From assembly GCF_021869535.1 (NCBI RefSeq), contig NW_026262593.1, positions 29,574,001 through 29,638,000 on the forward strand: a DNA stretch of 64,000 nucleotides, read 5' to 3'. A program made the position numbers and the translations under genes. Origin of the DNA: Mytilus californianus. Lineage: Eukaryota. The notes under the pieces were generated by a model, which worked only from the letters and a program-made list of their open reading frames with translations, was not told the origin of the DNA and did not search any database. Positions 30,889-63,630 of the stretch are shown one piece after another. Within the stretch, counting starts at the first letter, position 1. Every line of letters starts with the position of its first letter.

Positions 30889-31129
30889 ATTCACATTACG
30901 ACCATTAATGTCTCCTCCAGTAATGCTTGAGGCCGAAATGGTTGAAAATCCAAAGTCTAATACAAACGTTGAAGAACTGATAAAACCAAAAGGACTTAAA
31001 ATAAAACCAAATCCGGACAAGGAATCAGAGTTTTGCATTACCTCAGTGTAAACTTTGGTTAACGTAAAATCACGGCAAAAATAAGAAAAAGCATCACACA
31101 TCGAATTAAACATTCGGTGTCTAGGAAGA
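30889..31129 (+). pseudogene. Pseudo-exon (80 codons, two in-frame TAA) that seeded the 156-bp array
   Basis: aattttactgaaacag|A FTLRPLMSPPVMLEAEMVENPKSNTNVEELIKPKGLKIKPNPDKESEFCITSV*TLVNVKSRQK*EKASHIELNIRCLGR|gtaagt. Protein family not recognised. Confidence 0.45.
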
Positions 31130-32427
31130 GTAAGTAGTAAATTATGTTCCTTCTCTTAATTGTTACATCCGGACAAGGAATCAGAGTTTTGCATTACCTC
31201 AGTGTAAACTTTGGTTAACGTAAAATCACGGCAAAAATAAGAAAAAGCATCACACATCGAATTAAACATTCGGTGTCTAGGAAGAGTAAGTAGTAAATTA
31301 TGTTCCTTCTCTAAATTGTTACATCCGGACAAGGAATCAGAGTTTTGCATTACCTCAGTGTAAACTTTCAATTGGTTAACGTAAAATCACGGCAAAAATA
31401 AGAAAAAGCATCACACATCGAATTAAACATTCGGTGTCTAGGAAGAGTAAGTAGTAAATTATGTTCCTTCTCTAAATTGTTACATCCGGACAAGGAATCA
31501 GAGTTTTGCATTACCTCAGTGTAAACTTTGGTTAACGTAAAATCACGGCAAAAATAAGAAAAAGCATCACACATCGAATTAAACATTCGGTGTCTAGGAA
31601 GAGTAAGTAGTAAATTATGTTCCTTCTCTAAATTGTTACATCCGGACAAGGAATCAGAGTTTTGCATTACCTCAGTGTAAACTTTGGTTAACGTAAAATC
31701 ACGGCAAAAATAAGAAAAAGCATCACACATCGAATTAAACATTCGGTGTCTAGGAAGAGTAAGTAGTAAATTATGTTCCTTCTCTAAATTGTTACATCCG
31801 GACAAGGAATCAGAGTTTTGCATTACCTCAGTGTAAACTTTCAATTGGTTAACGTAAAATCACGGCAAAAATAAGAAAAAGCATCACACATCGAATTAAA
31901 CATTCGGTGTCTAGGAAGAGTAAGTAGTAAATTATGTTCCTTCTCTAAATTGTTACATCCGGACAAGGAATCAGAGTTTTGCATTACCTCAGTGTAAACT
32001 TTGGTTAACGTAAAATCACGGCAAAAATAAGAAAAAGCATCACACATCGAATTAAACATTCGGTGTCTAGGAAGAGTAAGTAGTAAATTATGTTCCTTCT
32101 CTAAATTGTTACATCCGGACAAGGAATCAGAGTTTTGCATTACCTCAGTGTAAACTTTGGTTAACGTAAAATCACGGCAAAAATAAGAAAAAGCATCACA
32201 CATCGAATTAAACATTCGGTGTCTAGGAAGAGTAAGTAGTAAATTATGTTCCTTCTCTAAATTGTTACATCCGGACAAGGAATCAGAGTTTTGCATTACC
32301 TCAGTGTAAACTTTGGTTTACGTAAAATCACGGCAAAAATAAGAAAAAGCATCACACATCGAATTAAACATTCGGTGTCTAGGAAGAGTAAGTAGTAAAT
32401 TATGTTCCTTCTCTAAATTGTTACATC
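31013..32427. repeat. Near-perfect tandem array, 9 units of 156 bp (units 3 and 6 are 161 bp)
   Basis: ccggacaaggaatcag starts at 31013, 31169, 31325, 31486, 31642, 31798, 31959, 32115 and 32271. Confidence 0.98.
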
Positions 32428-33764: not shown

Positions 33765-35235
33765 TGTGCAGAGTATATGTCAATAAAAAAGATACAGGAT
33801 ATATGTCAATGAGAAAGATACAGGGTATATGTCAATGAGGAGGATGCAGGGTATATGTCAATGAAGAGGATACAGGATATATGTCAATGAGAAGAATGCA
33901 AGGTATATGTCAATGAGAAGGATGCAGGATATATGTCAATGAGAAGGATATAGGGTATATATCAATGAGAAGGATACAGGATATATGACTATTAGAAAGA
34001 TACAGGGTATATGTCAATGAGAAAGATGTAGGTTATATGTCAATGAGACATGAGCAGAGTATATGTCATTGAGAAGGATGCAGGGTATATGACAATGAAA
34101 AGGATGTGCAAGGAATATATCAATGACAAGGATGCAGGGTATATGTCAATGAGAAGGATGTGCAAGGAATATGTCAATGACAAGGATGCAGGGTATCTGT
34201 CAATGAGAAAGATGCAGGAAGTATGTCAATGAGAAAGATACAGGGTATAAGATAAGATAAGATAAATTTTATTAACTAATTTGGGCCCCGTTGGGTATTA
34301 AGATTATATTTAAGAAAGAAAATCCAATAAATGACAGAAAACATATCAAATTACAGACACAAATATACAATATATAAATACTGCATATATGTCATTGAGA
34401 AATATACAGGGTATTTGTCAATTAGAAAGATACAGGGTATATGTCAATGAGAAAGATGCAGGGTATATGTCAATGAGGTGATGCGTAAGGTATATGTCAC
34501 TGAGAAGGACGTAGGGTATATATCAATGAGACGGATGAAGGATATATGTCAATGAGAAGGATGCAGGATATATATGTCAAAGAGAAAGATACAGGGTATA
34601 TGTCAATGAGAAAGATACAGGATATGTCAATGAAAAAGATACAGGATATGTCAATAAAAAAAGATACAGGGTATATGTCAATAAGAAAAAAACTGGGTAT
34701 ATGTCAATCAGAAGGATACAGGGTATATGTCAATGAGAAAGATACAGGTTATATGTCAATGAGAAAGATATAGGGTATATGTTGATGAGAAGGATACAGG
34801 GTATATGTCAATGAGATGATGCGCAGCGTGTATGTCAATGAGAATGATACAGGGTATATGTCAATGAGATGATGCGCAGCGTATATGTCAATCGGAAGGA
34901 TGCACGGTATATGTCAATAAGAAGGATACAGGGTATATGATAATGAGAAGGATACAGGTTATATGTAAATGAGATGATGCGCAGGCTATATGTCAATGAG
35001 AAGGATACAGGGTATATGTCAATGAGATGATGCACAGGGTATATGTCAATTAGAAGGATACAGGGTATATGTCAATAAGATGATGCGCAGCGTATATGTC
35101 AATGAGAATGATGCAGGGTATATGTCAATGAGAAGGAAACAGGGTATATGTCAATGAGAAGGATACAGGTAATATGTCAATGAGATGATGCGCAGGGATT
35201 ATGTCAATGAGAAGGATGCAGGGTTTATGTCGATT
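33765..35235. repeat. 26-bp minisatellite (gtatatgtcaatgagaaggatacagg) with 28-bp variants
   Basis: Dozens of diverged direct repeats without spacers, interrupted at 34248-34385. Confidence 0.97.
34248..34385 (-). mobile_element. Short 5'-truncated non-LTR retroelement 3' end inserted in the minisatellite
   Basis: The minus strand ends ...agttAATAAAatttatcttatcttatcttatctta, i.e. a polyA signal followed by a (TTATC)n tail. Confidence 0.7.
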
Positions 35236-35261
35236 AGACAGATGTAGGGAAAATGTTAAAG

Positions 35262-38200
35262 AGACGATAAAAAATAACATCTCAACACCATGCATGTATA
35301 GAAATATGGTGATATCTCCCGTCGAGCAGCAAGAACCATGACGAAGGAGCATTCGTTTGGCTGTTGGAGATGTATAAATACACAGTCATGTCCAATCGGA
35401 ATGGTTACATTAAATCTGAGACGCGTATTGGAAGAGTACAACTGTCTTTGGGCGTTCAAAAACCATTGCAACAACCCATCGAGGAGTATGCATAACTGAA
35501 GCCCTTGTCGGAAAATTACAACGATCTCTGCACAGTCAAAAACCACAACACAACCACCCATATGAGGGGTCTATATGACATGCAGCTATGCTATCTTTAT
35601 CAAACATACGCTCTTTTTCAGTGGAATTCCAAATAATCAAACCTTAATTCTTGTCGACCCACTTGCTAGATTTATTTTCAATTTGTTTTCGTCTTGAATA
35701 TGCATGCTGAACGTAAACCAACCATCAATCAACAATCAATCAATAAAAAATGATGATCAATTCAGGACCATTGTTTTCTAAAAACGAACGAAATTCTACA
35801 AAAAAAATGTCTTTTGTCGTTAGGAGATACATATTATTCTGTTTAGAAAATGGAAAGTTCAGACTTTTTTTCAAAATTAATTGACTTAAATAGTGCATAT
35901 TTATGCTGTTTATGATTACAAGTCATTAACATTTTAAATTCCTGTATATTAAACACAATTTATGAGTTTTTTTATTACGTTTTTAGAATTAACCCGATCC
36001 TTAGGGCATACATTTGTACTTCCGAAAATCAAACAAGATTAATTAAAAGTGAATAAAAATGTCGTGATTTTGTCTACACAACATACCAAGGATTTATATA
36101 GTAATTAAGATTGTACTACATAAATCCTTAAACCTACGAACCAGTTTTCAGACGGACAGTTTTTTGTTATTGTAAAATCTATAAGAATGTAATTTTCCTA
36201 CACATATTCAGTCACTTGTCGCATTCTTCCTTAGTAATCAAATACTAACCAATGTAACAATTGACAAGAACAAATGTGTAATTAAAGACACGTTTCGTTC
36301 TATCACATGTTCTCAATAGGTCAAATAGGTCCACCAGGAAGCATGAATATTTATGCATACAGACATGGATACGTAAGATGCATGTCTAAAGAAATTACAG
36401 TGTGGCTTAAAAATAACATTGCGCGTAAATTTCTCGTTTCGTCATGGTTGTTTTGGGATAGAGAAAAATGCTCGATCTTGCACGTGTAAGGGTGTATTGT
36501 ATTGATGGAGTAAAATATTTATATCCTACAAACTTGACTCAATTTTCAATTTCATTTTCAACCGAAAGAAAATACCATTATGACAATGCACAAGTACATA
36601 CGCGCGCGCATCAATATATACCAAAATTACGACATTGTATTTTATAAGAAAAAAGAGGTAGCCTAGGGCTTTTATCCCCTGAATTTATTTCACACCAAAT
36701 ATCATTTTCTCAAAGTCCTTCAATCTTACTTAAAATCCACAGTACCATAGATTCATATGTGTACTTTCAAGTTTTAATACCTTTTTGGCGTATTTCAGAA
36801 CATAATCATGAACAAATTGTAAATGCCTAAAGATGGCTCAAAACTACAATTTGGACAGGTTTTTTGGTGAAAAATATGATTTATTAAAAAAAATGTATGG
36901 GTGTGGTTCCTTTTTGAATTTACGTTGGAGTTCTTTTTTTGTTTGTTTTGTTAAATGCACGATTAAAAAATGACACCTCAACACCATATATAGAAGTATG
37001 GTTGATATTTCCCATCGAGCAACAAGAACCATGATGAAGGAGCATTCGTTTGACTGTGGGGATATAAAAATACAAAAGGCACGTCCAATCGGAAAAGTTA
37101 CGTTAAATCCTGACACTTGTATTAAAAGAGTGCGATGGTGTTTGTGCGTTCAAAATCCATTGAAACAATCTTTCGTGGGGTATGCAAAACTGAGGCCTTC
37201 TTGGAAAAGTAAAACGCTCTCTGTGCGATTAAAACCAACAACACAACCACCCTTTGAGGGGTCTATATGACGGGTCTATATGACATGCAGCATTGCATGA
37301 ATTCTATCTCTATCCAACATACGCTCTTTTTCAGTGGAATTTGACATAATCCAACCTTAATTCTGGTCGACCCACTTTGTAGAATCTACTTGTTTGATTC
37401 ATTTTCAATTTGTTCTCGTCTTTGGTATGCATGAAATATTTGCTATTGAACGTAAACCAACCATCAATCAGGCAATCAATCAATAAAAAATGACGTACAT
37501 TTCAGGATCATTGTTTTACTAAAAACGAACGAAATTCTTTAAAAAAAACTTTCTTCTATCGTTAGGAGATTTATACGTATTAGTGCAGATTTGTTTAATT
37601 CAAAATTAATTGACTTAAATAGTGCATATTTATGCTTGTTTATGTTTACAAGTCATTAACAGTTTAAAGTCCTGTATATTATACACAATTTATGAGTTTA
37701 TTTATTACGTTTTCAGAATCAACCCGATCCTTAGGTGATTCATTTTTTACTTCCGAAAATCAAGCGAGATTAATTAAAAGTGAATAAAAATGTCGTAACT
37801 TTGTCTACACAACATACCAAGGATTTATATAGTAATTAAGATCGTACTACATAAATCCTTTAACCTACGAACCAGTTTTTAGACTGACAGTTTTTTGTTA
37901 TTGTAAAATCAATAAGAATGTAATTTGCCTATCCATACTTACATGCACATTCTTCCTTAGTAATCAAATAATAACCAATGTAACAATTGACAAGAACAAA
38001 TTTAATGTGTTGTTAAAGACACGTTTCTTTCTATCACATGTTCTCAATAGGTCAAACTAGGAAACATGAATATTAATATCATATAGACATGGATGCTTAA
38101 GGTGCAAGTCTAGAGAAATTACATTGGGGCTTAAAAATAACATTGCGCGTAAATTCCTCCTTTAGTCATGGTTGTTGAGAGAGAAAGAAAGAGAAATACT

Positions 38201-41642: not shown

Positions 41643-42544
41643 TAAATGACTAGTTTATACTTAACCAGGTACAAAGTCAATCTTCTACTTGCTATTTTAT
41701 GCACTTCCATTTTTTTGTAACGGATATTAACTTAAATTTTAAAATAGAGTCATCTTGTAAAAAAAATTAAAAGTTTGAAACATTTGCTATACATTGTAGT
41801 ACATCAGTAGAACAAATGTTATAGATATTCAAATATCTGGAATGCCTCATTGACATTGTTATTTAAACGGCCTCCGATAGTCTAATGAATCAAAAGCGAA
41901 TTGTAAATGTCCGCTCTGTCTATCCATATTTATATATTTTTCGCAAGTCATTTTTATATCCAAATTTCTACAGATATCCTGTTCTAAAAGAGAGAGTGAA
42001 GATATCAAGTAAACAAACATAAATTATATGTCGAAGTAAAGCAGATAACATCACGGTCAAAAAGAATAAAAGCGCGGTTGCGCTATCAGGCAGTGTTTTT
42101 TCTGTCAATATATAAGTGTCATGTTACCTACCAAAATACTAAATTCTCAGTGACTAGATAGAGTTGTAGCTTTTCATCAAATTTAGATACAGCTGCACTG
42201 TCTATTCTGAAATGTCGCAAAGTGCTGACACTCCTGAGTTTTTCTTTGATTTTGAGAAATGTTCTTATCTTTCCATGAACCGAACAAGTAACTGCACATT
42301 TAGCTTTTAAGTTTAATTCAATCTTTTTTTAGGTAATTTTATCGAGACTGCGAGATTTTGGATTTAGACTTTTTAAGCTGGTTGTATATAACATGCATAT
42401 TTAATAACAGGTTATTATAATATTCTATCTCTGCGTCTGGTGTATGTTCCCCAAAAATAAATCCTAGGGTTAAATCATCGCTTTGTCAGTCCACAACTAT
42501 GTCCGTCTGGCTGTCCTTCCATCCGTCTACATCCGAATGAATTA

Positions 42545-42747
42545 CTGTAAATTCAGAAATTATTGCGTGCATTTATTATTGCGATTTTAGAAGAATGGGC
42601 ATAAATGCGAGTTTATTTTTTGCGATTTCAGTAAAGCTGCATACAGATATATGCATCAGATATTAGAATGCGAGTTCTTATTGCGATTCTCATCCAGTCG
42701 CATAATTCGCATTAATAAAAACCTCGCAATAATTTCTGAATTTACAG
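42545..42747. mobile_element. Identical copy of the 203-bp MITE at a different insertion site
   Basis: Same sequence as 41440-41642 with flanks gaatgaatTA / TAgtttctg. Confidence 0.95.
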
Positions 42748-42899
42748 TAGTTTCTGAATGGTAACGTGCATTTCCCGCACTTGGAAGAAGCCTTTTGATT
42801 TGGGGTCAATAGGTCAAAGTTCAAGGTCTTCAAGGTCTCTGCTGCTAAAAATAGATTTATTATATGAAAATGTTTACAGATGGTATCTTGAGTATAGCT

Positions 42900-43370
42900 T
42901 GCTTTATTGAAATGATTTTTTTTTGATTTTTTTTCTTCACTTTTTTTCTTTCTTCTTTTTCTCTTTTTTTTTCTTTTTCTTTCTTGCTTCTTTCTTTTCT
43001 TTTGCTCTATCTTAAGATTTGTAGTTTTATAATTTGAAATGTGAGTACACTTGTGGATGGAAAATGTAATGAGTGTTATCAAAAGATTTATATCATAACT
43101 GCTGTCCCAGATTTTATATCCTACTATGAGATTTCTGAAGGTTAGGATATGATGACCAATTTTAACTTTATTTAACAGTGTTTTGACTTTTTCCCAAAAG
43201 GCTTTAAAGTATTGACATTCCAGAAAAAAATGTTTATAATCTTCTGTTTCATTACATATATGGCATTTACTGTCTTCTTTTGTCTTCCATTGAAAAAGCA
43301 GTTGTTTACAAGGAAGGATATGATGCAGTAATTTCCATTTAAATATTTGAAATGAAACTTATACAGATTG
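42900..43370 (-). mobile_element. L1/Tx1-like LINE ORF2 3' end (zf-RVT/CCHC region), repeated in all four units
   Basis: QIFKWKLLHHILPCKQLLFQWKTKEDSKCHICNETEDYKHFFLECQYFKAFW, followed by an A-rich 3' tail and AATAAA. Units B and C have a 1-nt deletion that shifts the frame. Confidence 0.85.
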
Positions 43371-45124
43371 GAGAGATATTGAATTGAAAGACACCAACTG
43401 ATTTCAGAGTTCATATGTCAAAGTTCAAGGTCAAGGTGTATGTTCCCCAAAAATAAATCCTAGGGTTAAATCATCGCTTTGTCAGTCCAACCCTATGTTC
43501 GTCTGGCTGTCCTTCCATCCGTCTACATCCGAATGAATTACTTAGTTTCTGAATGGTAACCTGCATTTCCCGCACTTGGAAGAAGCCTTTTGATTTGGGG
43601 TCAATAGGTCAAAGTTCAAGGTCTTCAAGGTCTCTGCTGCTAAAAATAGATTTATTATATGAAAATGTTTACAGATGGTATCTTGAGTATAGCTTGCTTT
43701 ATTGAAATGAATTTTTTTTTCTTTTTTTTCTTCACTTTTTTTCTTTCTTCTTTTTCTCTTTTTTTTCTTTTTCTTTCTTGCTTCTTTCTTTTCTTTTGCT
43801 CTATCTAAAGATTTGTAGTTTTATAATTTGAAATGTGAGTACACTTGTGGATGGAAATGTAATGAGTGTTATCAAAAGATTTATATCATAACTGCTGTCC
43901 CAGATTTTATATCCTACTATGAGATTTCTGAAGGTTAGGATATGATGACCAATTTTAACTTTATTTAACAGTGTTTTGACTTTTTCCCAAAAGGCTTTAA
44001 AGTATTGACATTCCAGAAAAAAATGTTTATAATCTTCTGTTTCATTACATATATGGCATTTACTGTCTTCTTTGTCTTCCATTGAAAAAGCAGTTGTTTA
44101 CAAGCAAGGATATGATGCAGTAATTTCCATTTAAATATTTGAAATGAAACTTATACAGATTGAAGAGATATGGAATTGAAAGACACCAACTGATTTCAGA
44201 GTTCATATGTCAAAGTTCAAGGTCAAGGTGTATGTTCCCCAAAAATAAATCCTAGGGTTAAATCATCGCTTTGTCAGTCCAACCCTATGTTCGTCTGGCT
44301 GTCCTTCCATCCGTCTACATCCGAATGAATTACTTAGTTTCTGAATGGTAACCTGCATTTCCCGCACTTGGAAGAAGCCTTTTGATTTGGGGTCAATAGG
44401 TCAAAGTTCAAGGTCTTCAAGGTCTCTGCTGCTAAAAATAGATTTATTATATGAAAATGTTTACAGATGGTATCTTGAGTATAGCTTGCTTTATTGAAAT
44501 GAATTTTTTTTTCTTTTTTTTCTTCACTTTTTTTCTTTCTTCTTTTTCTCTTTTTTTTCTTTTTCTTTCTTGCTTCTTTCTTTTCTTTTGCTCTATCTAA
44601 AGATTTGTAGTTTTATAATTTGAAATGTGAGTACACTTGTGGATGGAAATGTAATGAGTGTTATCAAAAGATTTATATCATAACTGCTGTCCCAGATTTT
44701 ATATCCTACTATGAGATTTCTGAAGGTTAGGATATGATGACCAATTTTAACTTTATTTAACAGTGTTTTGACTTTTTCCCAAAAGGCTTTAAAGTATTGA
44801 CATTCCAGAAAAAAATGTTTATAATCTTCTGTTTCATTACATATATGGCATTTACTGTCTTCTTTGTCTTCCATTGAAAAAGCAGTTGTTTACAAGGAAG
44901 GATATGATGCAGTAATTTCCATTTAAATATTTGAAATGAAACTTATACAGATTGAAGAGATATGGAATTGAAAGACACCAACTGATTTCAGAGTTCATAT
45001 GTCAAAGTTCAAGGTCAAGGTGTATGTTCCCCAAAAATAAATCCTAGGGTTAAATCATCGCTTTGTCAGTCCAACCCTATGTTCGTCTGGCTGTCCTTCC
45101 ATCCGTCTACATCCGAATGAATTA

Positions 45125-45327
45125 CTGTAAATTCAGAAATTATTGCGTGCATTTATTATTGCGATTTTAGAAGAATGGGCATAAATGCGAGTTTATTTTT
45201 TGCGATTTCAGTAAAGCTGCATACAGATATATGCATCAGATATTAGAATGCGAGTTCTTATTGCGATTCTCATCCAGTCGCATAATTCGCATTAATAAAA
45301 ACCTCGCAATAATTTCTGAATTTACAG
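45125..45327. mobile_element. Third identical copy of the 203-bp MITE (duplicated with its host unit)
   Basis: Same sequence and flanks as 42545-42747. Confidence 0.95.
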
Positions 45328-46419
45328 TAGTTTCTGAATGGTAACGTGCATTTCCCGCACTTGGAAGAAGCCTTTTGATTTGGGGTCAATAGGTCAAAGT
45401 TCAAGGTCTTCAAGGTCTCTGCTGCTAAAAATAGATTTATTATATGAAAATGTTTACAGATGGTATCTTGAGTATAGCTTGCTTTATTGAAATGATTTTT
45501 TTTTTCTTTTTTTTCTTCACTTTTTTCTTTCTTCTTTTTCTCTTTTTTTTTCTTTTTCTTTCTTGCTTCTTTCTTTTCTTTTGCTCTATCTAAAGATTTG
45601 TAGTTTTATAATTTGAAATGTGAGTACACTTGTGGATGGAAATGTAATGAGTGTTATCAAAGGATTTATATCATAACTGCTGTCCCAGATTTTATATCCT
45701 ACTATGAGATTTCTGAAGGTTAGGATATGATGACCAATTTTAACTTTATTTAACAGTGTTTTGACCTTTTCCCAAAAGGCTTTAAAGTATTGACATTCCA
45801 GAAAAAAATGTTTATAATCTTCTGTTTCATTACATATATGGCATTTACTGTCTTCTTTTGTCCTCCATTGAAAAAGCAGTTGTTTACAAGGAAGGATATG
45901 ATGCAGAAATTTCCATTTAAATATTTGAAATGAAACTTATACAGATTGAAGAGATATGGAATTGAAAGACACCAACTGATTTCAGAATTCATATGTCAAA
46001 GTTCAAGGTCATCACTGACTAAAATTTCAAACATTAAGTTTTAGAAGAAAACAATTGGTTACCAGATGGTAACTTGAATTTCCCTTGCTTGATTAGAATG
46101 ATACTTGTACATATGGCAGATGTAGGAAAGGTGAGAACGCCCAGTGATTTTGGATAAAAGTTCAATGTTCAAGGTAACCTTGTTAAATTTGTCAAAAGTG
46201 GATGCCCTTAAGCAGTTTGTTCTGAATTTTTATTCTAGATACTTGCTTTTTTATGCTCCCTGGAGCAGGTAGTTCTTTCTTAGCTACGTTGTTTTGCATG
46301 CTATACCATGTGATGGGGGGGGGGGATTTTTTTGCTGACGAAATGTACATTACCACATGTTACTATGCCTTTTTATCTATTTTCACTTTTGTATTAGAAT
46401 TAGAATTTATACCTACGGG

Positions 46420-50745: not shown

Positions 50746-51316
50746 TCTCTCAGTCTCAATTCAAACATAAAAGTGAATTTAATGGAACATAAAAGTGAAT
50801 TTAATGAAAAAATAGTTCACAACCAAGATAAGCCATCGTTATGGTAAGTATAACAAACATACAGACAAATATTGTTCAAGTAAACCACTAGTAATCGTTC
50901 TGAACATGTATCAAATATTTCCCACTGGACGTAAAGCAAACACTAATCAACCAATCATACTTCTAGTAATATTCATATAGAGTTTTGTACAATCTTGACT
51001 CCTGTTGAGGCGACCTTTACATTTTACCTGTCGGTGTTGTTGTTTGCCAGTTATTGAACTTTTCTATTATGGACATTGACAATAAAAGGCGCAGGTGCAT
51101 TTTATTCAAAATAAAGACAGTAGTTATTCACAGTATACTATAGTGTTTTTCATATTTTGTATGAATGACATTTATTGGTTTTTTTATTCGACATGAATAG
51201 GAAGGTTATGTGTACAGTGTTCTCCAATCAGATTTAAAAATGTCCATGTCATAAATACGCATAAATCGAAAAACAGCCGTAAGAAAAATTATACATAAGA
51301 ATATTAATTTTTTATT

Positions 51317-52248
51317 TCACTCAAATTCTTCTTCCGCTTCGCCCACTTCGATGCTAGTTTCACCTCCTTTCGGATTACAACACTTTGTCTTTCGGATACC
51401 CGAAGAGTTCGGTTTACCACACTGTCCCTCTGAAACTGTACTGCCGATGCATTTTTCCATACAATAACATCGGGCCTGTTGAACAAGCGATGACGCAGTA
51501 GTTGCTGTTTGTTCTGAGTCGGGACCTTCCGTTTCCTGTTGTTCAGTTGTGGTTTTTGTTGGTGTAGCAGACGGCTGAATCGGTATAAGAGCTCCTGTGT
51601 TTTTTTCTGCAGCAGATATCACTGTTTGCTTTGAAGCAACGTTACTGTATGAGATACCGGACTGCTTTGAAGCAACGTTATTGTACGAGATACCGGAATG
51701 CTTTGAAGCAACGTTATTGTATGAGATACCGGACTGCTTTGAAGCAACGTTATTGTACGAGATACCGGACTGCTTTGAAGCAACGTTATTGTATGAGATA
51801 CCGGACTGCAGATTTCCAAAATATTTTACAGGCTGGGGACTTTGAATTAAAGATGTAGAACTTTTTGCAACCATTGTTTTATTAATAGTAGGCTGTCCAA
51901 CGTCTGATTTGACGACGTCTAAAATTTTCATCAAGTTTGCTACAGAAGTGATTTGCTTTGTACCTTGACTTTTGCCATGTGCTTGAATGTATTTCTTCAA
52001 TGCCTCAGTGTAGGAAAATTTTAGCTTATCTTGGTTTCCAGAATTCAATTTTGTTTTCAGTGAATTAATGAAATTTTGATTTCTATAAGAAAACTCCTTC
52101 ATGTTCACCCCATTTTTTTCAGCTATTGCATTTATATAAGAAAAATCGTTTGTCTTTTTCCTTTTTGGTGAAAATGTATTTGCATGTTTTTCTGTATTTA
52201 TTGGCCTTGCAGAAACAGTGTCTTGCTTTACTGGTACCACTGGGTTGC
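51317..52248 (-). CDS. Coding exon 2 (terminal) of an uncharacterised 329-aa secreted protein with 12-aa repeats and a six-Cys defensin-like C-terminal module
   Basis: 932-nt uninterrupted frame after the acceptor ttattttgtattttag|GC (phase 1). It ends in TGA followed immediately by AATAAA (51316-51311) and joins in frame with the exon at 57855-57798. Confidence 0.85.
51627..51809 (-). repeat. Five in-frame 36-bp coding repeats (QSGISYNNVASK)
   Basis: tgctttgaagcaacgttattgtatgagataccggac x5 on the + strand. Confidence 0.97.
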
Positions 52249-52789
52249 CTAAAATACAAAATAATTTCAATTTATATAACAACTAACTTTACAGAAAGTG
52301 TTTTGGTCGTATATAACTGGGTTTTGCTGGGTCCCAATTCTTTAATGAGTTTTAAAACAATTTCATTTTCAGTATGAATGCAGACTTACAAAATAAGCGC
52401 AAGTTAGATTTTGACAAACTCGTTTTTTTGTTTGCTGTGTGTCCACTTTCTAAGGGGTTTCGAAGGTCCGAGTTTGGAAAAACACACACAAAAATGGTTT
52501 ATTTCAGAAAAACGCTTGCTATATTTTTTGTCCTTTTTGGTTTTGATTTTTTTTCAATAAGTTTTGGATTTTCAAATAATTTGGTCTCGATCATCACTAA
52601 AGAGACATTTATTATCGAAATGCGCATCTGGTGCAAAAAAATGGTACCGTTAATGTTATTGGAAATCTAAAAATTCAAACTCTAACTTGACAAGTGATTT
52701 ATTTGTCCTACATAATAATTTGGTTCAAAATATTAAAATCCCTTATTTGTTACAATAGTTTGGTAGATAAAATAATAAAACAGCCAATA

Positions 52790-52890
52790 TAAAAATAAGG
52801 AGTGGTGGTATGATTGCCAATGAGACAACTATTATACCACCAGAGATCAAATGAAGTGGATGTAAGCAATTATAGGCAACCGTACGAAGA
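52790..52890 (+). mobile_element. Family B fragment (intronic)
   Basis: aataaggagtggtggtatgattgccaatgagacaact..ataggcaaccgtacg. Confidence 0.7.
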
Positions 52891-53782
52891 ATGTTTTTAA
52901 AGACGAGTTTCTATATGGCATTTTTAATGATATTCTGTGAGTGTGAATGTTATTTGTGTATGTGCGTTATTCTTCTTGTCTGGCTGGTAACATTTTAAAG
53001 TTTTAATTTAAAAAGGAAAATAAAAATAAGACATGACCTAAGTTAAATAAATAAAATCATAGAGAGAACACAAACCAATTACCGAGGTCACATAAACGAT
53101 CAAATAAACCAAGAACTAATAATCTGTATTTTTTTTCCTACATTCCAGGACAAGGTTTTTAGACCAATAGAAAAGTTGTAAAAGTTAATAATTAGTCTTA
53201 GTTTGCTATAAATACTTAAAACACCATAGCAAAGTTTGTAAATATCAACAATAACACGAAGTGACATGTTCACATGACAATGAAATGCAATAAATAGTTT
53301 ATTAATTACATGTTTTAGTTTTTTGTCACCTTTCCGTTATTTACAATTACAATAGATTAAAAGAACATTGCTTTTTGTTATATAAGTTTTCCTTTTATGC
53401 ATTGTCAAATCAGATTTGAAATAAGACAAGGAGAAGTTATCATTGGTAAAATACAAACAATTAGTGACAGTTCATGCCATTGTTTTACATGATAAAGGTA
53501 CCAAGAAGTACGAGTTAGTCAACCAATAAACATGCGGCCAGTGCACTAAACAAACATTTTTCAATTACCTGTTTAAACGTACAATATCGATGATTAATTA
53601 CAATTTTATTTCTCATTGTTTTTTTTTCCCCACAGTTATGTAGAAATAAATGACATAAGAAATACCGATTATCAGTTCAATTGTTTTATACAAATCTAAT
53701 GTTGAATGAAAGGTTTCAAACTAGATGATCCGTAAGACACTTCTAACTCGAAATGCTGACAAATTCTAAGGGTAGCTATATG

Positions 53783-54040
53783 TGGTATTGTTTAGCTAAC
53801 CTACCTAGCCCAAAGGACAATGTCAGCTTTTGCCATCACTTTGCGTCCGTCGTCTTTCCATTCGTCATCGTAAACTTTAAACCAAATAAATTCTCCTCCA
53901 AAACTACTGGATTAAATGTTACCAAATTTTACCTAAAATGGCCCCTGTTGCTTAAAATTGAATTTACAGTTACCATTCAACACAATTCTTGTATTTTATG
54001 CAAAAATCCTATATGAGCAATACATGCTCTCTGGAACTGC
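53783..54040 (+). mobile_element. pearl/HINE-like non-autonomous element fragment (intronic)
   Basis: tttagctaacc..agcccaaaggacaatgtcagcttttgccatcactttgcgtccgtcgtc..cgtaaacttt resembles the 5' end of bivalve pearl/HINE elements. Confidence 0.65.
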
Positions 54041-55659
54041 TTACTGACTTATCGGACAATTAAGTCTTTGGATCAAAAATAGAAACGTGGATAGTATTTT
54101 TAATGCAACAATAGATGCAGCTTGCTCGTTTGTAATGACTATGGAAATTGAAATCATCAAATGAAAAATGTGAAACATACTTTTTTTGTTAGCTAAAAGT
54201 TTAATAATAATAATAATAATAAAGAATTCAGGTTACAGAGATGTATGAAAAAATTCTTGTGGCGAGCTTAAACAACCAATTTACTGATCTATACATTAGT
54301 CGTTTGGATTGATATGTAATAAGTGAGTTTCTCATCTTACAAAAGTTTCATCATGGATAAGTCCGTTAAGATTATTGTTTTCGAGGAAACGTGAGAGGAA
54401 ATCGCTTTCAACATGCTTATTGCTGCATCTTATTCGATAATAAGTTTGGGTGTTCTGCCAAATGGTCCATTAAAAACTCTTTTTTTGTGTGTTTTAGCAT
54501 TTGGAATCTATACAAACGCCACTTGCATTTGAAAATCCCATTTAAACTTTCAATCAAATTTATAAGGAAGATAGTAAATCTCTACGGCATTAAAAAGAGA
54601 GGCGAAAAAACCAAAAACGAAAATGTTGAAAATGCAACCCGAACCCCCAAAAATGGAGGGGGATATCAGTTCTTCGGAACGGTAAGCATATTATTAAGCT
54701 TCACATGTTTTATCCGTCGTGTTGATCAAGGTAGATACTTTTTCGGTGTTGAATCTTAATCAAGGAAAATAGCTTCAACAATTTGAATATATCCGAGGTC
54801 ACTTGTTACACAGATCATAACTTAATTAGCTTCCTTGTAAGCAGCAATCTTAATCTAGGAAATCATGAAAGGGAACGCAATTTCTTGAATATCGTATCCA
54901 CTAAATGATATATATATATATATATTGTTTCTGTTTGGTAATAAATTAATAATAAGATCTATTTTGTTACATCTTATGATCCGTTTGTTTGACAATCGCC
55001 AATGGCAGTCAGCAGGGTTTAAGAACATCAGTTGTTCGACCTGCTAGTCAAATGCGTTTTGTTAAAATATACTTTTTCACTCATTTTGGTCTTTTGGAAA
55101 ATGTTGTTTGTGCTGTATTTAGACCCCTCTACCAAGAAATTTGTTTTGCATGCACACGTATAAAAATCTTCTCAGTTTGTGATTTTGACGTTACGAAAGA
55201 GGCGACTATGCCAGATGCTAGATTAATGACGAACTACGAGTCATCTTATGGCTTTCAATATTGCGTTGAACCCATACTGTATAGTAAGGAATATAACAGA
55301 ACGAGATGATAAAATTTGCAAATACTAAAAAAAAAACAAAGGCCTGATTTATCCTTCAACAACTATGACAGACAACCAGGACAACTACTGGATTACAACT
55401 ACAAGCTACTGGTTTGGGACCGTATATGTCCCATGTTTGTGAACACTTGAAATATGTCTCCTAACCAGGAATTAAGCGTAAGAGCACAACATGCTAACAA
55501 ACTACTAAAAGGAGTTGGAAAAGGCTTCACTCATCAGATTGTTACTGAGCACCAAAAATGTAAAAAAAAAAAAAAAAGACAAAAGACATAAAATAGATCT
55601 TAAGTTACTCGCAGTTTCAGAGAGCTAGTTAATGGCCAGTTTTAACTTATCAGTAAACA

Positions 55660-56710
55660 TTATCACACATTTTTTTACAAAAACATTGGGTTTTGCATAT
55701 GCAATAACCGCAGATTTGCCCTAGTCAGTCATACTCCTGCCGGGGCAAATAACTGGTTATTGTGCCCTGTTATGACGTCATAAGAATTATTTGGGAGCTT
55801 CGTAATATAATTATAGATAATAACATGTCCTTTTCCATATCGGCCCTAGTATCATCCTGAGACTCCCATATGAGATCATACATCATATGAACCCAAGGCG
55901 CTAGCCGAGTGCTCATATCGGTCGAGGGAATTTTCTTTTAGTATTAGTGTTCTTATTTCTTTTACAAATTCTGCTGTCATATTTATCGACGTTTCTCGTC
56001 CGTCATTGTTGTTAGGAGGAACGTTATCACATATTTGTAGCATTCTAGTCATATTCCTACCTGGGGCAAATAACCGGTTGTTGTGCCCTGTTATGACGTC
56101 ATTGTTGTTACGAACGCTTATGACGTCACAACAGGGCACATTAACCGGTTATTTCCGGATAGGAATATGTAAAGATAAATAAGAAGATGTGGTATGAGTG
56201 CCAATGAGACAACTCTCCATCCAAGTCACAATGTGTAAAAAGTAAACAATTATAGGTCAAAGTACGGCCTTTAACACGGAGCCTTGGCTCACACCGAACA
56301 GCAAGCTATAAAGGGTCCTAAAATGACTAATGTAAAACAATTCAAACAGGAAAACCAACGGTCTAATCTATATAAAAAACAACAAACGACAACCACTGAA
56401 CAACAGGCGCCTGACTTAGGACAGGTGCATACAGATGCACCGGGTTTTAATGTTTTAACAGGCGCCAACCTTCACCCTAACCTGAAACAGTAGTGTTACA
56501 TTACAACATAAAAAGACACCTGTTTTAAAGGTATACTAAATAATAAATCTGCAGTTATTGCATATGCACAATCAAATGTTTTCGTAACAAATATGTGATA
56601 AATGAAGTTATTTCTCGACTCATATGAGCCCTCGGCTAGCGCTTTTGGCTAAAATGGGAGTCTCGGGATGATTCCAGGGCCGATATAGAAGAGGACATGT
56701 AATCTATAAC
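55660..56710. mobile_element. Cluster of oppositely oriented MITE-like fragments with a central palindrome; split by a family B' insertion (56172-56520)
   Basis: 55660-55718 inverts to 56543-56600 and 55820-55930 inverts to 56605-56710. 56050-56169 is a long hairpin containing TGACGTCA twice. Confidence 0.7.
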
Positions 56711-57797
56711 TATTTTCTCAGAAAACTTTTTCACTCTAACGGATTTCTCGTACAGACATCATAAGCAGTCTGAGAAAGAATGTATATTTGCAATGGCAAA
56801 ATAAAGTATCGACATGATTCAGGAACATATTAAGTGTTAATACTTAATAATTAATATATATACTTAATTATTTATCCAACTTAGAAAATAAAATAAATGT
56901 TAGTACCGATAAAGAAATAAATCAAAGATCTTACTACAATGTTCATTGATAACCCTCAAGAATAAGGTTTATTCAAAGGGCCATTAACCCTTAATTGTTG
57001 GTATAATTCCACACTTTATTTTATATTAACTCTAAGAACAAAACATTGAAGTATATAACATCGCCTTTCGACGGCCTAGTGATTGAAGAAGTTATTAAAT
57101 ATATCGGGATTTCGAAAAAGTTGAGAATATTTAGTACGGCTCTACGGTTCTTTGAAGAAAACAAGGCTTTTAACGAAACAAAAAAACAACCTTCTTGGAT
57201 TTTACACGTTTGGTTTACGGTGCCTGTTATAAAAGCGGCATTCATAGTATCTCCCGCGTCATTTTGAATCGCCAATACAATATGCCACCCTAGATTTAAT
57301 TATAGTATTGGTGAAAGACAACGACAAGACAAATAAGTCAACAAAACGCTACAAAGAAGACTGAAGACTGAACAACACTAACCCCATCAAAAATGTATGG
57401 TCCAGAAGGGTAAGCAACTTATAAGGAGTTATACTGTAGTACTGCTTGCATGTTTTATCTCTCTAAAAGTAACTATAAAAAAACAAACTATACAAATGTT
57501 TTGTTTTGAGGGTAATATATTATTTTGAAGTTTTAAAGTATACCAAAACTAGAGTATAAAAGCATGCATGTTGTGCATATTCATAGAAAGGAAAAAAGAA
57601 ATTTATTTATTTTTTAAATTTTTTAAATCAGCTTCTTGTTCTTGTTCTTTGAAAATGAGTTAAATGCGTTAAAACAAAAACACTAGTACCTAACAAAATT
57701 TGGAATCATTGACTCTTATAATTATATGTGATTACATTGATTACAAATACAATCTCGTCAAACATAAACTGATGAAAAAAATTATTTAAAATCTTAC

Positions 57798-57855
57798 CGT
57801 CAGTTAAACTCACAACACCAAGAGCGAAGATGAATGTTAATATACAGTTCTTCAT
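57798..57855 (-). CDS. Coding exon 1 (signal peptide) of the secreted protein
   Basis: ATG AAG AAC TGT ATA TTA ACA TTC ATC TTC GCT CTT GGT GTT GTG AGT TTA ACT GAC G|gtaaga = MKNCILTFIFALGVVSLTD plus a phase-1 G. G+GC gives Gly, then NPVVPVK. This is a classical n/h/c signal peptide. Confidence 0.8.
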
Positions 57856-60612: not shown

Positions 60613-62790
60613 ATGGAAATAACCAGAAAAAGAAGCAATCGTGTAAAAGGAAAGACAGTCATGTTTACACCCGGTTAATCTGTAGCTAATACTGCAACTA
60701 AAACCAAAAAATCAAGTACTAGTAGTAGTATCAATGAAAAAAACTGTTGATTATGAATTAAATAAAAGAAAGGCTGCGAGAAAGCTGCAGAACGGTTGTA
60801 CACAGTAAAAACAGAATTAAGTCCAGGAAATTTGGTTTTTATTTGTTCTGCTGCTGCTTATGATGAATTTAAAATAATAACACAGTCAGTCATTAATAAC
60901 TCTGGTCTTCTGATTAGTAAAACTGAGACTAAGAATAAAATAGGAGCCGTTGTATCTGAATCATTAGCTAAATGCGAAGGGAGCACAAAGTTATTTGTCT
61001 TGAACTTTTTTAACACTACGACAAAGGTACTTTTGGTAAACAAGCTTATATTAAAGATTTCATTACCTCCCCTTTTGGAGACTGTGTACTGTGTACTGTG
61101 TAAACATTGATCGTGACCACAAATTTAGACTTTAACAATCAAATAAGAGAGTATTGTAAAATGTTTTAGATACTACGCATCAGGGTAATTTAGACAAGGC
61201 AGCCAATGATGAGCACGGCTATCATAGCGTGAATAAACAACTAGCGTCTAGTACTAAGCAACTGACAGATGGGACATATTTAAACAGTAAGCAAATAACA
61301 GTACATAATGACGTCTCGTGTCCAATATGTGATAAGATCTGTGGTGAAGAATCTAAGGCAGTAGAGTGTGATATAAGTAATTCTTGCCTGCATTATAGCT
61401 GTGAAAAACTAACAAATAGTGAAATCCAAGTAATTGAGAATGATTAAACAGCAGGATATGTCTGTAGAAGTTGTAGTGAGTTGAGAGATCTGCAGTCTGA
61501 TCATGTCACAGGTGATTCCCTCTCTGAAAAAATCATGGTTTCAAGTAAGGATGAGGAAAATACTTCAAGAGTTTCAAGTTCGTCTGTATCAAGTGTTCCT
61601 AAAATACTAAAAGACAATATGACAAATTTTATTGTTATAGGTTGCATTTCTTTAAAAAATAGACAATGCAATTTCCCATAGGAACTCCCTTTACGGCTAA
61701 AACTGTGCCACTTTTACTATGAAGTTTCGTAAAAAAATATATCCTAGAATGGAAAGTTGATATGCACTATTTTTATTCAAAGATCAAAACATAGGGCTGT
61801 GCGGCATTATACGAGAAGTGATCTACATAACAGTTCGGTACAAATCGGATCAAATATTTTAAAAGAAGAAATGAACTTTCTAAAATTATAATTAACTCTA
61901 AAAGATAAAGGAATCAAACAAAAGGATAGTCAAATTTATAAATTACAAACAGAAGTGTCTACGCAGAAAAAAGAGCAATCAGCAAGTAGAGCATATGCTA
62001 TATAAAACTGGAAAATAACATTCGTGATTTAGAGCACTCTCTGTTAATTCAAAAAAAAAAGGCAACAGTCGAGCGAGTCTGCTACTAACAACAGGCAAAG
62101 CCTTCTTAGTGAAATAAATAACAAATCAGAATCAGAAAACTTAAAAAGTTGGTTCCTAGAACAGAGCCAACTGGAATTGGAAGTTTGTAAACAAGATAAT
62201 AAAATAAGTAATCTAAGTGATAAATTGATAGACTTAAGATTTGATAATAGTAATCAATCGACGCGCTACCGGCAAAGGCAAAATAGAGGGAAGCAAAATA
62301 AAGTATATAGGTCCAATCGAAAAAGCCAGGCACATTTAAATAGATACATTGAAAACCAGGATTGCAATTTTCAAAATGATTTCTCAGATTTTAATGGGGG
62401 CATGTCTTTTAGGCACGACGAATCTCAACTAAACTGTTTTCGTTCTGATGCTAGTGGTAGTGGCAATGAGGCTAATTCTGTGTTAGATGTTCAATCTAGT
62501 TATCTTGACAATTTTTTAGAGAATGGTCACTTTAGCAGGGGGGAAACGAAATGTCAAGCACAAGCGAGGAAAATATTTCACGAGAAATCGAAGCAAGCTT
62601 ATATACCGCCAAAAAAGCAAATGAAAAAATTACCACCGAGATTCCAACGTCTTCATCACCAAAAACTAGGGTGCATTCAGAGAGACAATCCAATGATGCC
62701 CATAAATTCTCAAACTACAAAAATGTAGAAAAATTTAATCAAAAGTGTCATGAAGATAAGAGTAACAATAACTGTGTAGAAAGTGTGCTG
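60613..62790 (+). pseudogene. LINE ORF1 relic (N-terminal conserved domain, PHD finger, coiled coil), split by a family E insertion at 61637-61800
   Basis: DYELNKRKAARKL..VKTELSPGNLVFICSAAAYDEFK..KLFVLNFFNTTTKVL; PHD CPICDKIC..AVECD..LHYSCEKL..YVCRSC; coiled coil IKQKDSQIYKLQTE..KLENNIRDLE. A YY1-like cgccatcttg lies upstream at ~60513. Confidence 0.8.
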
Positions 62791-63630
62791 AACATTTTAT
62801 CTTTTAACATTGAAGGTTTTATCTATGCTAGAGAAAACAGCTGATATAATTATGTTACAACAACATTGGCTACACAATAGAGAAAAACAAGTTTTAGAGG
62901 AATTTTAAACTGACTTTTTATGTTTATCAAAATGTTTTGATGACGATAAGACAAATGACAAATGACCCAATAGAAAGAAGGAGGGGACATGCTGGTGTTG
63001 CGATATGTGTTAACAAAAAAATACAAAATTTTGTTGAACTTTTACCGAATAGATGTATCAGAGTAATAGCTTCACTGCATAGAAACGAACGCAAAATACC
63101 TCGTGACGTTGTCTTTGGTGAGTTTTTGAAATCTAACGGTTTGTCAATTATATCAGCTTGTAAAAAACTAAACACCTTTTTTCATTTTAACAATAGAGAT
63201 GAATCTCAGATTGACTACTTTGTGGAAACTAAGATGTTAGCCAAAATAAACTTGTCATTTTACCGTGAACTTCAGAATTTATCGACTCATGATCCAATTA
63301 TGATTTCCATTGATTGTTGTCTTGAAGGGATGGATGTAAGCACTAAAAATCCAAGAACTTTACGTATCAAATGGGATAAAATTGACAAACAAAAATATGA
63401 AACTTTATTACAAGAGAATTTAAAGATTTTAAAGAAGTGCCTGTTTTGAATCTGTGGAAAATATTGGTAACATTTTAACAAGTTTTTCTAACATTTTTGT
63501 GAAAACTGGAAGTGCCAAAAAAAATCAAAACTCAAAATATAAGGGATTCTACGCTTCAAGAAGATTGCCTGACTGGAGTAGTTCATCTGATAAAGGTGGA
63601 ATGTACAGAATATATAACAGCTAACAGGTA
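62785..63630 (+). pseudogene. LINE ORF2 apurinic-like endonuclease domain (L2/CR1 group), internally deleted and 3'-truncated before RT
   Basis: LNILSFNIEGF, IIMLQQHWL, RGHAGVAICV, TFFHFNNRDESQIDYF, NLSTHDPI, IKWDKIDKQKY. No RT motifs were seen downstream. Confidence 0.85.

Follow-up and report, generated by a model that had tools for sequence, protein, structure and literature searches.

Does a mussel secrete a module built like a mammalian alpha-defensin? The question is raised by a 64,000-nucleotide stretch of Mytilus californianus DNA (contig NW_026262593.1, positions 29,574,001 to 29,638,000; hereafter the window), in which the initial annotation singled out a six-cysteine array with a Gly-x-Cys4 element. 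Translation of minus-strand positions 51469-51377 reproduces that module exactly. The module had been said to hold every cysteine of the mature protein, and this is borne out: exon 2 encodes only these six, and the seventh cysteine of the precursor lies in the putative signal peptide. An anionic tail had been described as well; the window tail does carry a net charge of -6 over 19 residues, but the description had omitted the first five of them, NPKGG. The features of the gene are collected in Table 1.

Table 1. Positions of the gene and its encoded parts within the window.
Feature	Position	Strand	Description
Coding exon 1	57798..57855	-	58 nt: ATG, 19 codons plus one base, hydrophobic stretch, donor GTAAGA
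Phase-1 intron	52249..57797	-	5.5 kb, GT...AG, contains several high-copy repeats
Coding exon 2, terminal	51317..52248	-	309 full codons plus stop; open frame; orthologues align along the whole length
Conserved basic N-terminal region	51896..52174	-	three spaced FS[YF] motifs, preceded by a Lys-rich segment
Five 36-bp units encoding a 12-residue Ser/Asn/Gln-rich repeat	51627..51809	-	5.1 copies, 95% matches
Thr/Glu-rich acidic linker	51470..51559	-	conserved; T-T-T-E...T-E...S-x-Q, Arg right before Cys1
Six-Cys module, C-x-C-x3-C-x9-C-x12-CC	51377..51469	-	31 residues, 93 bases; predicted three-stranded trans-defensin-like domain
Acidic C-terminal tail	51320..51376	-	conserved S-x-E and E-A-x-E

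Joined, the two coding exons specify a precursor of 329 residues. Exon 1 contributes a segment with an 11-residue hydropathy of 2.85 that is signal-peptide-like, judged by hydropathy and position, and its product matches the N terminus of the M. galloprovincialis orthologue P0008 at 60% over 20 amino acids; the protein is presumably secreted. Exon 2 sits in a 321-codon open frame that ends in a stop codon at window positions 51319-51317 (minus strand), and AATAAA occurs at 51316, with further copies at 51188 and 51176. The splice junction was compared with four sequencing runs (X1, X2, X3 and X14), of which X1 and X2 were guessed to be RNA. Contigs from X1 and X2, which come from two studies, depart from exon 2 at position 52249 and continue with the letters of exon 1 (29 of 30 and 28 of 30, respectively); X3 and X14 cover part of exon 2 and end short of the junction. 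A further run, X15, covers the intron evenly and is unspliced across the acceptor. In RNA run X21, zero reads fell on both exons among 10.3 million reads (about 6/100 of the run), a count that applies to that sample only. Non-exhaustive searches of the mussel's own genome with the module (one match, one candidate) and with the N-terminal region (one match among 14 candidates) returned no paralogue, and a codon pattern for the hairpin gave three matches, two of them within frames of 21-27 codons, again with no paralogue. The gene is spliced and, no paralogue having been found, single-copy.

Very high-copy short repeats occupy 52787-52886, 55080-55340 and 56175-56450 of the intron and are also abundant in the X21 RNA reads. 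Elsewhere in the window, approximately four tandem copies of a unit of about 792 bp carry a decayed zf-RVT (reverse-transcriptase zinc-binding) fragment (42439-46156; E 2e-8), a tandem array with a period of about 156-159 bp reaches nine copies with 98% matches (31011-32427), and a 26-bp minisatellite extends to about 57 copies (33769-35264). At 62048-63449, two plus-strand open frames of 226 and 183 amino acids look by eye like LINE-type retroelement pieces, with no Pfam match at E 0.01.

The weight that the cysteine array can bear was assessed against chance. A loose alpha-like array, the pattern for which was fixed only after the module had been seen, occurs once in the window and in none of 150 windows with shuffled bases (expectation about 5e-4 for each window). 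By simple arithmetic, the same rate yields about 12 chance arrays in a 1.65 Gb genome. Because the pattern is post hoc and a dozen or so chance arrays are expected per genome, the spacing alone is modest evidence. We judge the module real because it lies in a spliced transcript and because its exact spacing is kept in 38 of the 41 stored proteins, which carry 10 distinct module forms (the window itself supplies two of the 38, and the three proteins without the module are two spurious matches and one N-terminal fragment).

These relatives came from several searches. A word-based protein search gave three matches among 8000 scored sequences, and three of 19; the matched clusters name M. edulis, M. 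trossulus and M. galloprovincialis and are annotated as hypothetical or 'sericin-2-like'. A HMMER search of 1.84 billion representatives gave six matches at E<=0.001, including P0003, P0014, P0015 and P0018; P0016, a repeat protein from a leafhopper, was dropped along with P0017, both being without the cysteine array. A profile search (six matches among 8000) added P0034 and P0035. Scans of metagenome contigs produced no confirmed locus for the family. P0014, P0015 and P0018 represent three distant lineages, presumably other mussels, that are about 40% identical and preserve the whole layout minus the repeats. A tree of 12 proteins contains four deep lineages with unresolved branching order, and the order of parts is common to all four.

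Within the module, the spacing 1-3-9-12-0 is invariant in all 10 distinct forms. Thirteen columns are invariant; besides the six cysteines these are E, G, G, P, G, R and K, all located in the second half. In the hairpin half, 8-11 of 15 non-cysteine positions agree with the distant lineages, as against 2-4 of 10 for the first half and 38-46% for the N-terminal region. Directly before Cys1, where the initial annotation had pointed to the basic residue of QQAR, Arg is present in nine forms and Lys in one, so that the basic character is indeed conserved. The module's charge is +1 in five forms, +3 in two and +4 in three, and an N-x-S sequon lies within the loop in Mytilus and P0014. Between the window and X1 there are 19 changing and five silent codon differences (pN/pS ~1.2), of which two changing and one silent fall in the module and leave every invariant residue untouched; these counts derive from contigs of one run and possibly include polymorphism. 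Short-term constraint is not strong by this measure. Most of the invariant residues (the three Gly, the Pro and perhaps a Glu-Lys pair) could be structural, and their conservation is hence no proof of a binding face.

The remainder of the precursor is also partly conserved. The N-terminal 129 residues carry a net charge of +13, and the highest 11-residue hydropathy within exon 2 is 1.59. The N-terminal region is 36-46% identical to its counterparts in the three distant lineages, and its three FS[YF] motifs are present in all six proteins checked. It gave no significant match in Pfam or the PDB; being kept in all four lineages, this likely helical region may be a new small domain. The 12-residue repeat, by contrast, varies from five units here to 10-14 in seven further Mytilus-type proteins that were counted and none in the three distant lineages, with an unrelated short segment in its place in P0014 and P0015. 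The linker (net charge -3) retains 13-19 of 28-30 positions in the distant lineages and could form an O-glycosylated stalk. In all 10 module classes the tail has a net charge of -4 to -6 and contains S-x-E, a candidate site for a secretory kinase (Fam20C), and E-A-x-E is invariant in alignment A2. Two of the four lineages have a tail without any basic residue, and no conserved basic cut site precedes the tail across the lineages compared. Neither Lys-Arg nor Arg-Arg sites flank the module in the 11 proteins checked, and there is no amidation signal.

To obtain a picture of the fold, the module was modelled with AlphaFold. From the single sequence, the model had pLDDT 56 and pTM 0.26; from a 21-row alignment, the best model had pLDDT 61 (74 over residues 21-30) and pTM 0.34, and the other four had pLDDT 41-45. 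Both the single-sequence model and the best alignment model, which are not independent of each other, place strands at about residues 8-10, 18-23 and 34-39 and contain no helix. In VIA-align comparisons with 48,161 chains, the alignment model gave three rows at Z>=2, namely rabbit RK-1 (Z 2.1, rmsd 2.3, 32 residues aligned), hBD4 and gallin. The single-sequence model gave five, namely HD-6 (Z 2.3, rmsd 2.7, 31 aligned), gallin, HNP1, a rhesus alpha-defensin and helianthamide (PDB 4x0n; Z 2.0, rmsd 2.4, 32 aligned, 12% identity), the last of which we take to be a trans-defensin-fold peptide. All eight rows belong to peptides of the trans-defensin fold; the alignments span 31-34 residues with rmsd 2.3-3.3, at Z scores (2.0-2.3) that lie at the reporting floor. 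Foldseek was less consistent: with the single-sequence model it returned two alpha-defensins at E 9.1, whereas with the better, alignment-based model it returned four rows of unrelated chains and zero defensins, and none of three candidate chains from that search reached Z>=2 when re-aligned. The structural check that had been proposed for this module is, on balance, divided, with three strands and exclusively trans-defensin VIA-align rows on one side, and low pLDDT and a defensin-free Foldseek result for the better model on the other. The AlphaFold result may also echo a learned cysteine pattern. The definition of the trans-defensin superfamily in PMC7203481 includes six cysteines, and all 10 distinct modules have six in the domain. 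The superfamily is further characterised by three antiparallel beta-strands, and by a pair of disulfides that leave the last strand in opposite directions. Taken as predictions, these models make it probable that the module adopts a trans-defensin fold.

If so, is it of the alpha or the beta type? From Cys1 to Cys4, the module's C-x-C-x3-C-x9-C is that of HD-6 (PMC4035769) and one residue shorter than that of HNP-1 (PMC11858525), and its invariant Gly two residues before Cys4 resembles the Gly17 bulge of alpha-defensins (PMC2803202, PMC11858525). HD-6 and the module both have Gly-Ile six and five residues ahead of the terminal CC (PMC4035769), and HNP-1 likewise has Gly six before CC (PMC11858525). 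The predicted sheet aligns with alpha-defensins over 31-32 residues at rmsd 2.3-2.9, and an acidic stretch lies upstream in both. These likenesses sustain the Cys1-Cys4 and G-x-C4 parts of the alpha-defensin parallel originally drawn. The Cys4-Cys5 loop has 12 residues in all forms of the module as compared with nine in the human peptides (PMC4035769) and 11 in equine DEFA20-29 (PMC2803202). Absence of the Arg5-Glu13 salt bridge, which had also been proposed, is confirmed by the residues at both positions (Met or Thr after Cys2, and Thr or Leu four after Cys3), although the bridge is not an absolute feature, as equine DEFA20-29 are also without it (PMC2803202). The module further differs from alpha-defensins in its polar last strand and low charge. 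The precursors diverge as well: that of HNP-1 is 94 amino acids long and consists of a signal, a short anionic pro-piece and a cationic peptide (PMC11858525), whereas the mussel precursor has about 260 residues between signal and module, a net-basic N-terminal part and an acidic C-terminal tail. The alpha-defensin profile PF00323 matches neither the module nor any of 21 alignment members, and the gene is absent among 12 matches from 69 own-genome candidates, a Pfam scan that is insensitive to small domains. By the features tested, the domain is not a member of the alpha-defensin family, a family reported only from mammals in PMC7203481.

The 12 PF00323 matches in the mussel's own genome were themselves rejected as defensins on inspection of 10 loci: a Cys-rich tandem repeat accounts for four of them and short frames for five, and the last gave no frame that could be read. 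The four repeat loci (L003, L004, L006 and L007) belong to a dispersed tandem repeat whose Cys-rich translation, in frames of 117-265 codons, yields false PF00323 matches, one of which passes the curated cut-off when neighbouring matches are summed.

The structural alignments bear on disulfide pairing. HD-6 has cysteines at 30 and 31 (PMC4035769). In the low-confidence model, residues 4-39 align with HD-6 residues 1-32, which would place module Cys6 on HD-6 Cys5 if the alignment is ungapped. The alignment ends for gallin, helianthamide and RK-1 are read as the same register, given the cysteine positions that we assume for these peptides. This modelled register hints at a beta-type offset (Cys1-5, 2-4, 3-6); the alpha-type pairing (1-6, 2-4, 3-5) would, if anything, be disfavoured. 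Among the beta-defensins and ovodefensins, gallin was matched by both models and hBD4 by one, and hBD-2 shares with the module G-x-C4-G-x-P and a K-C-C end (PMC4035769). The gap between Cys1 and Cys2, on the other hand, is six residues in hBD-1 and hBD-2 and one in the module (PMC4035769). Like the big defensins, the mussel protein carries a defensin-like C-terminal domain on a longer secreted bivalve protein (PMC7203481); unlike them, it has a basic, hydrophilic N-terminal region in place of a hydrophobic globular domain, and PF14862 matches neither the module nor any of 21 alignment members. In big defensins and beta-defensins, a phase-1 intron sits right at the Cys domain's 5' edge (PMC7203481), whereas here the intron lies 260 codons upstream; because no intron marks that edge in the mussel gene, its structure does not tie it to the big defensins. 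On another contig, a weak PF14862 match (G000:C2:68277473-68277547; 21.9 bits, 87-codon frame) may be a genuine big-defensin exon. For the protein, the module and its orthologues, searches by profile and by sequence turned up no defensin family, and an origin independent of defensins, by convergence, is plausible.

Comparable folds have been put to other uses. The BDS/APETx peptides of anemones combine a C-x-C start with beta-type pairing and have a much longer Cys2-Cys3 loop than the module. In helianthamide, an alpha-amylase inhibitor, the trans-defensin fold serves enzyme inhibition; these anemone peptides are short venom peptides, whereas the module is a domain of a long protein. Closer in architecture are the rusticalin-like proteins and the tick carboxypeptidase inhibitor, in which beta-defensin-like modules form part of larger secreted invertebrate proteins (PMC6339383). 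Those modules are proposed to be regulatory or inhibitory, the tick protein being an enzyme inhibitor of the same fold (PMC6339383). The rusticalin-like modules (Cx6Cx6-7Cx8Cx7CC) differ in being paired, N-terminal and peptidase-fused (PMC6339383); here a single module is C-terminal, next to no recognisable enzyme. Among mussel peptides, the mytilins resemble the module and its tail in that a secreted precursor has a cationic core with an anionic extension behind it (PMC7168163). They have eight cysteines, a CS-alpha-beta fold and a charge of mostly +7 to +10, and directly follow the signal peptide (PMC7168163), and the contrast with mytilins drawn in the initial annotation holds for array, charge and position alike. 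It extends to CRP-I, a hypervariable knottin array, C(x3-6)C(x1-7)CC(x3-4)C(x3-5)C, in which the CC is not terminal as it is in the module (PMC10138031). The myticofensins are listed with one helix and two strands (PMC12055553), as compared with the helix-free models here.

Broader searches gave no other identity. The module matched no Pfam family, and the protein and its orthologues had no significant match there; P0018 had no sequence match in the PDB, and PDB sequence matches to TIM10 (E 0.04-0.7) and a restriction enzyme (E 1.2) were taken as chance. ESM Atlas gave no usable feature match for the module or P0008, and its structure rows all had TM <0.4. The domain probably represents a novel version of the trans-defensin fold, borne by a secreted mussel protein not described before.

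What such a domain does can be proposed tentatively. The reading we prefer, at somewhat less than even confidence, is that the module would be a three-stranded, three-disulfide trans-defensin-like domain that binds a specific partner, rather than a peptide that kills through membranes. The basic N-terminal region would anchor the protein to polyanionic extracellular material, and the variable low-complexity spacer and acidic Thr-rich stalk would project the domain outward. The conserved face of the hairpin (Glu, Pro, Arg, Lys) would then touch a protein partner, for example an enzyme or a receptor. Cleavage at the Arg or Lys before Cys1 may free the domain, probably still tailed and neutral to anionic. 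We favour a recognition domain because the hairpin face is fixed and because the same fold serves as an inhibitory or regulatory domain elsewhere. The basic residue before Cys1 and the module's acidic flanks are equally compatible with a pro-peptide model.

Such a pro-peptide model would make the module a host-defence peptide, cut before Cys1 and trimmed of its tail so that a cationic core could act on microbes, viruses or toxins. Beyond the basic residue at -1 in all 10 modules and the acidic flanks, it can draw on the anionic pro-piece of alpha-defensins (PMC2803202) and mytilins' anionic extension at the C terminus (PMC7168163), and on the HD-6 spacing from Cys1 to Cys4 with its Gly-Ile before CC (PMC4035769). 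The charge of +1 to +4, set against mostly +7 to +10 in mytilins, speaks against it, although Perna mytilins average about +4 and some are nearly neutral, so that low charge is compatible with defence (PMC7168163). The fragment from Cys1 to the end has a net charge of -3, and two of the four lineages offer no basic tail residue. The window module has a single aromatic residue and a hydropathy of -0.42. The residues that set HNP-1 activity, Tyr16, Ile20, Leu25, Trp26 and Phe28 (PMC11858525), align by cysteine spacing with Glu, Gly, Arg, Lys and Lys in the module. Low charge, a single aromatic residue and polar or charged residues at the HNP-1 activity positions would make lytic action unlikely. 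The sequon in the loop, and the 260 partly conserved residues between signal peptide and module, also sit poorly with a released peptide. Moreover, no paralogue of the gene was found and its module is conserved, whereas CRP-I is hypervariable (PMC10138031) and M. galloprovincialis has six big defensins (PMC7203481). The suggestion in the initial annotation that a cationic antimicrobial peptide is released finds no support in the charges, the tails or the paralogue searches, and we regard a host-defence peptide as unlikely.

An equally doubtful reading places the protein in an extracellular material (byssus, periostracum, shell, mucus or egg coat), where the Cys module would cross-link, buffer redox or bind metal and its defensin likeness would be incidental. 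The Ser/Asn/Gln repeats with Tyr and Lys, the S-x-E acidic tail and the basic N-terminal region would suit a matrix protein, and the family is seen in Mytilus and distant relatives only, as for mussel-specific material. The Cys-rich foot proteins mfp-6 and mfp-16 to -19 play such roles (PMC7018715), and the protein may be one of mfp-16 to -19. An even number of cysteines with fixed spacing and fixed Gly and Pro, however, suits a fold with internal bonds, three of the four lineages lack the repeats, and five peptide strings of the protein are absent from five supplementary files of the Mytilus shell proteome (PMC4517812).

We give still less credence to the idea that the protein is processed into a signalling ligand resembling a hormone or neuropeptide, or into a factor of gamete recognition, in which a small disulfide fold would bind a receptor. 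The failure to find a paralogue, the conserved hairpin residues and the basic residue at -1 would be in keeping with this, as would the zero X21 exon reads if taken as restricted expression in that sample only. The raised pN/pS between close relatives would also be in keeping, a pattern seen in reproductive proteins too. Against it stands the lack of flanking Lys-Arg or Arg-Arg sites in the 11 proteins checked and of an amidation signal. Quite improbable, finally, is that mussels independently evolved an alpha-defensin with 1-6/2-4/3-5 pairing, release from a long precursor at the conserved Arg or Lys and HD-6-like, non-lytic binding or trapping of microbes.

Six accession numbers and five peptide strings of the protein had no match in the literature searched (a scope that lay outside subscription papers and most proteome supplements), and no description of the protein was found there. 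Should the fold prediction fail, this would be an ordinary lineage-specific secreted protein. In PMC7203481, the trans-defensins of invertebrates are assigned to big-defensin or beta-defensin types, and an alpha-type outside mammals would be new if true. With an HD-6-like first half and a beta-defensin-like end, the module offers a natural test of whether a C-x-C start dictates alpha-type pairing. It also tests how often the trans-defensin fold arose or was re-used for binding, and it marks out a family of secreted proteins, unannotated and spread over four lineages, that has so far been labelled only 'hypothetical' or 'sericin-2-like'.
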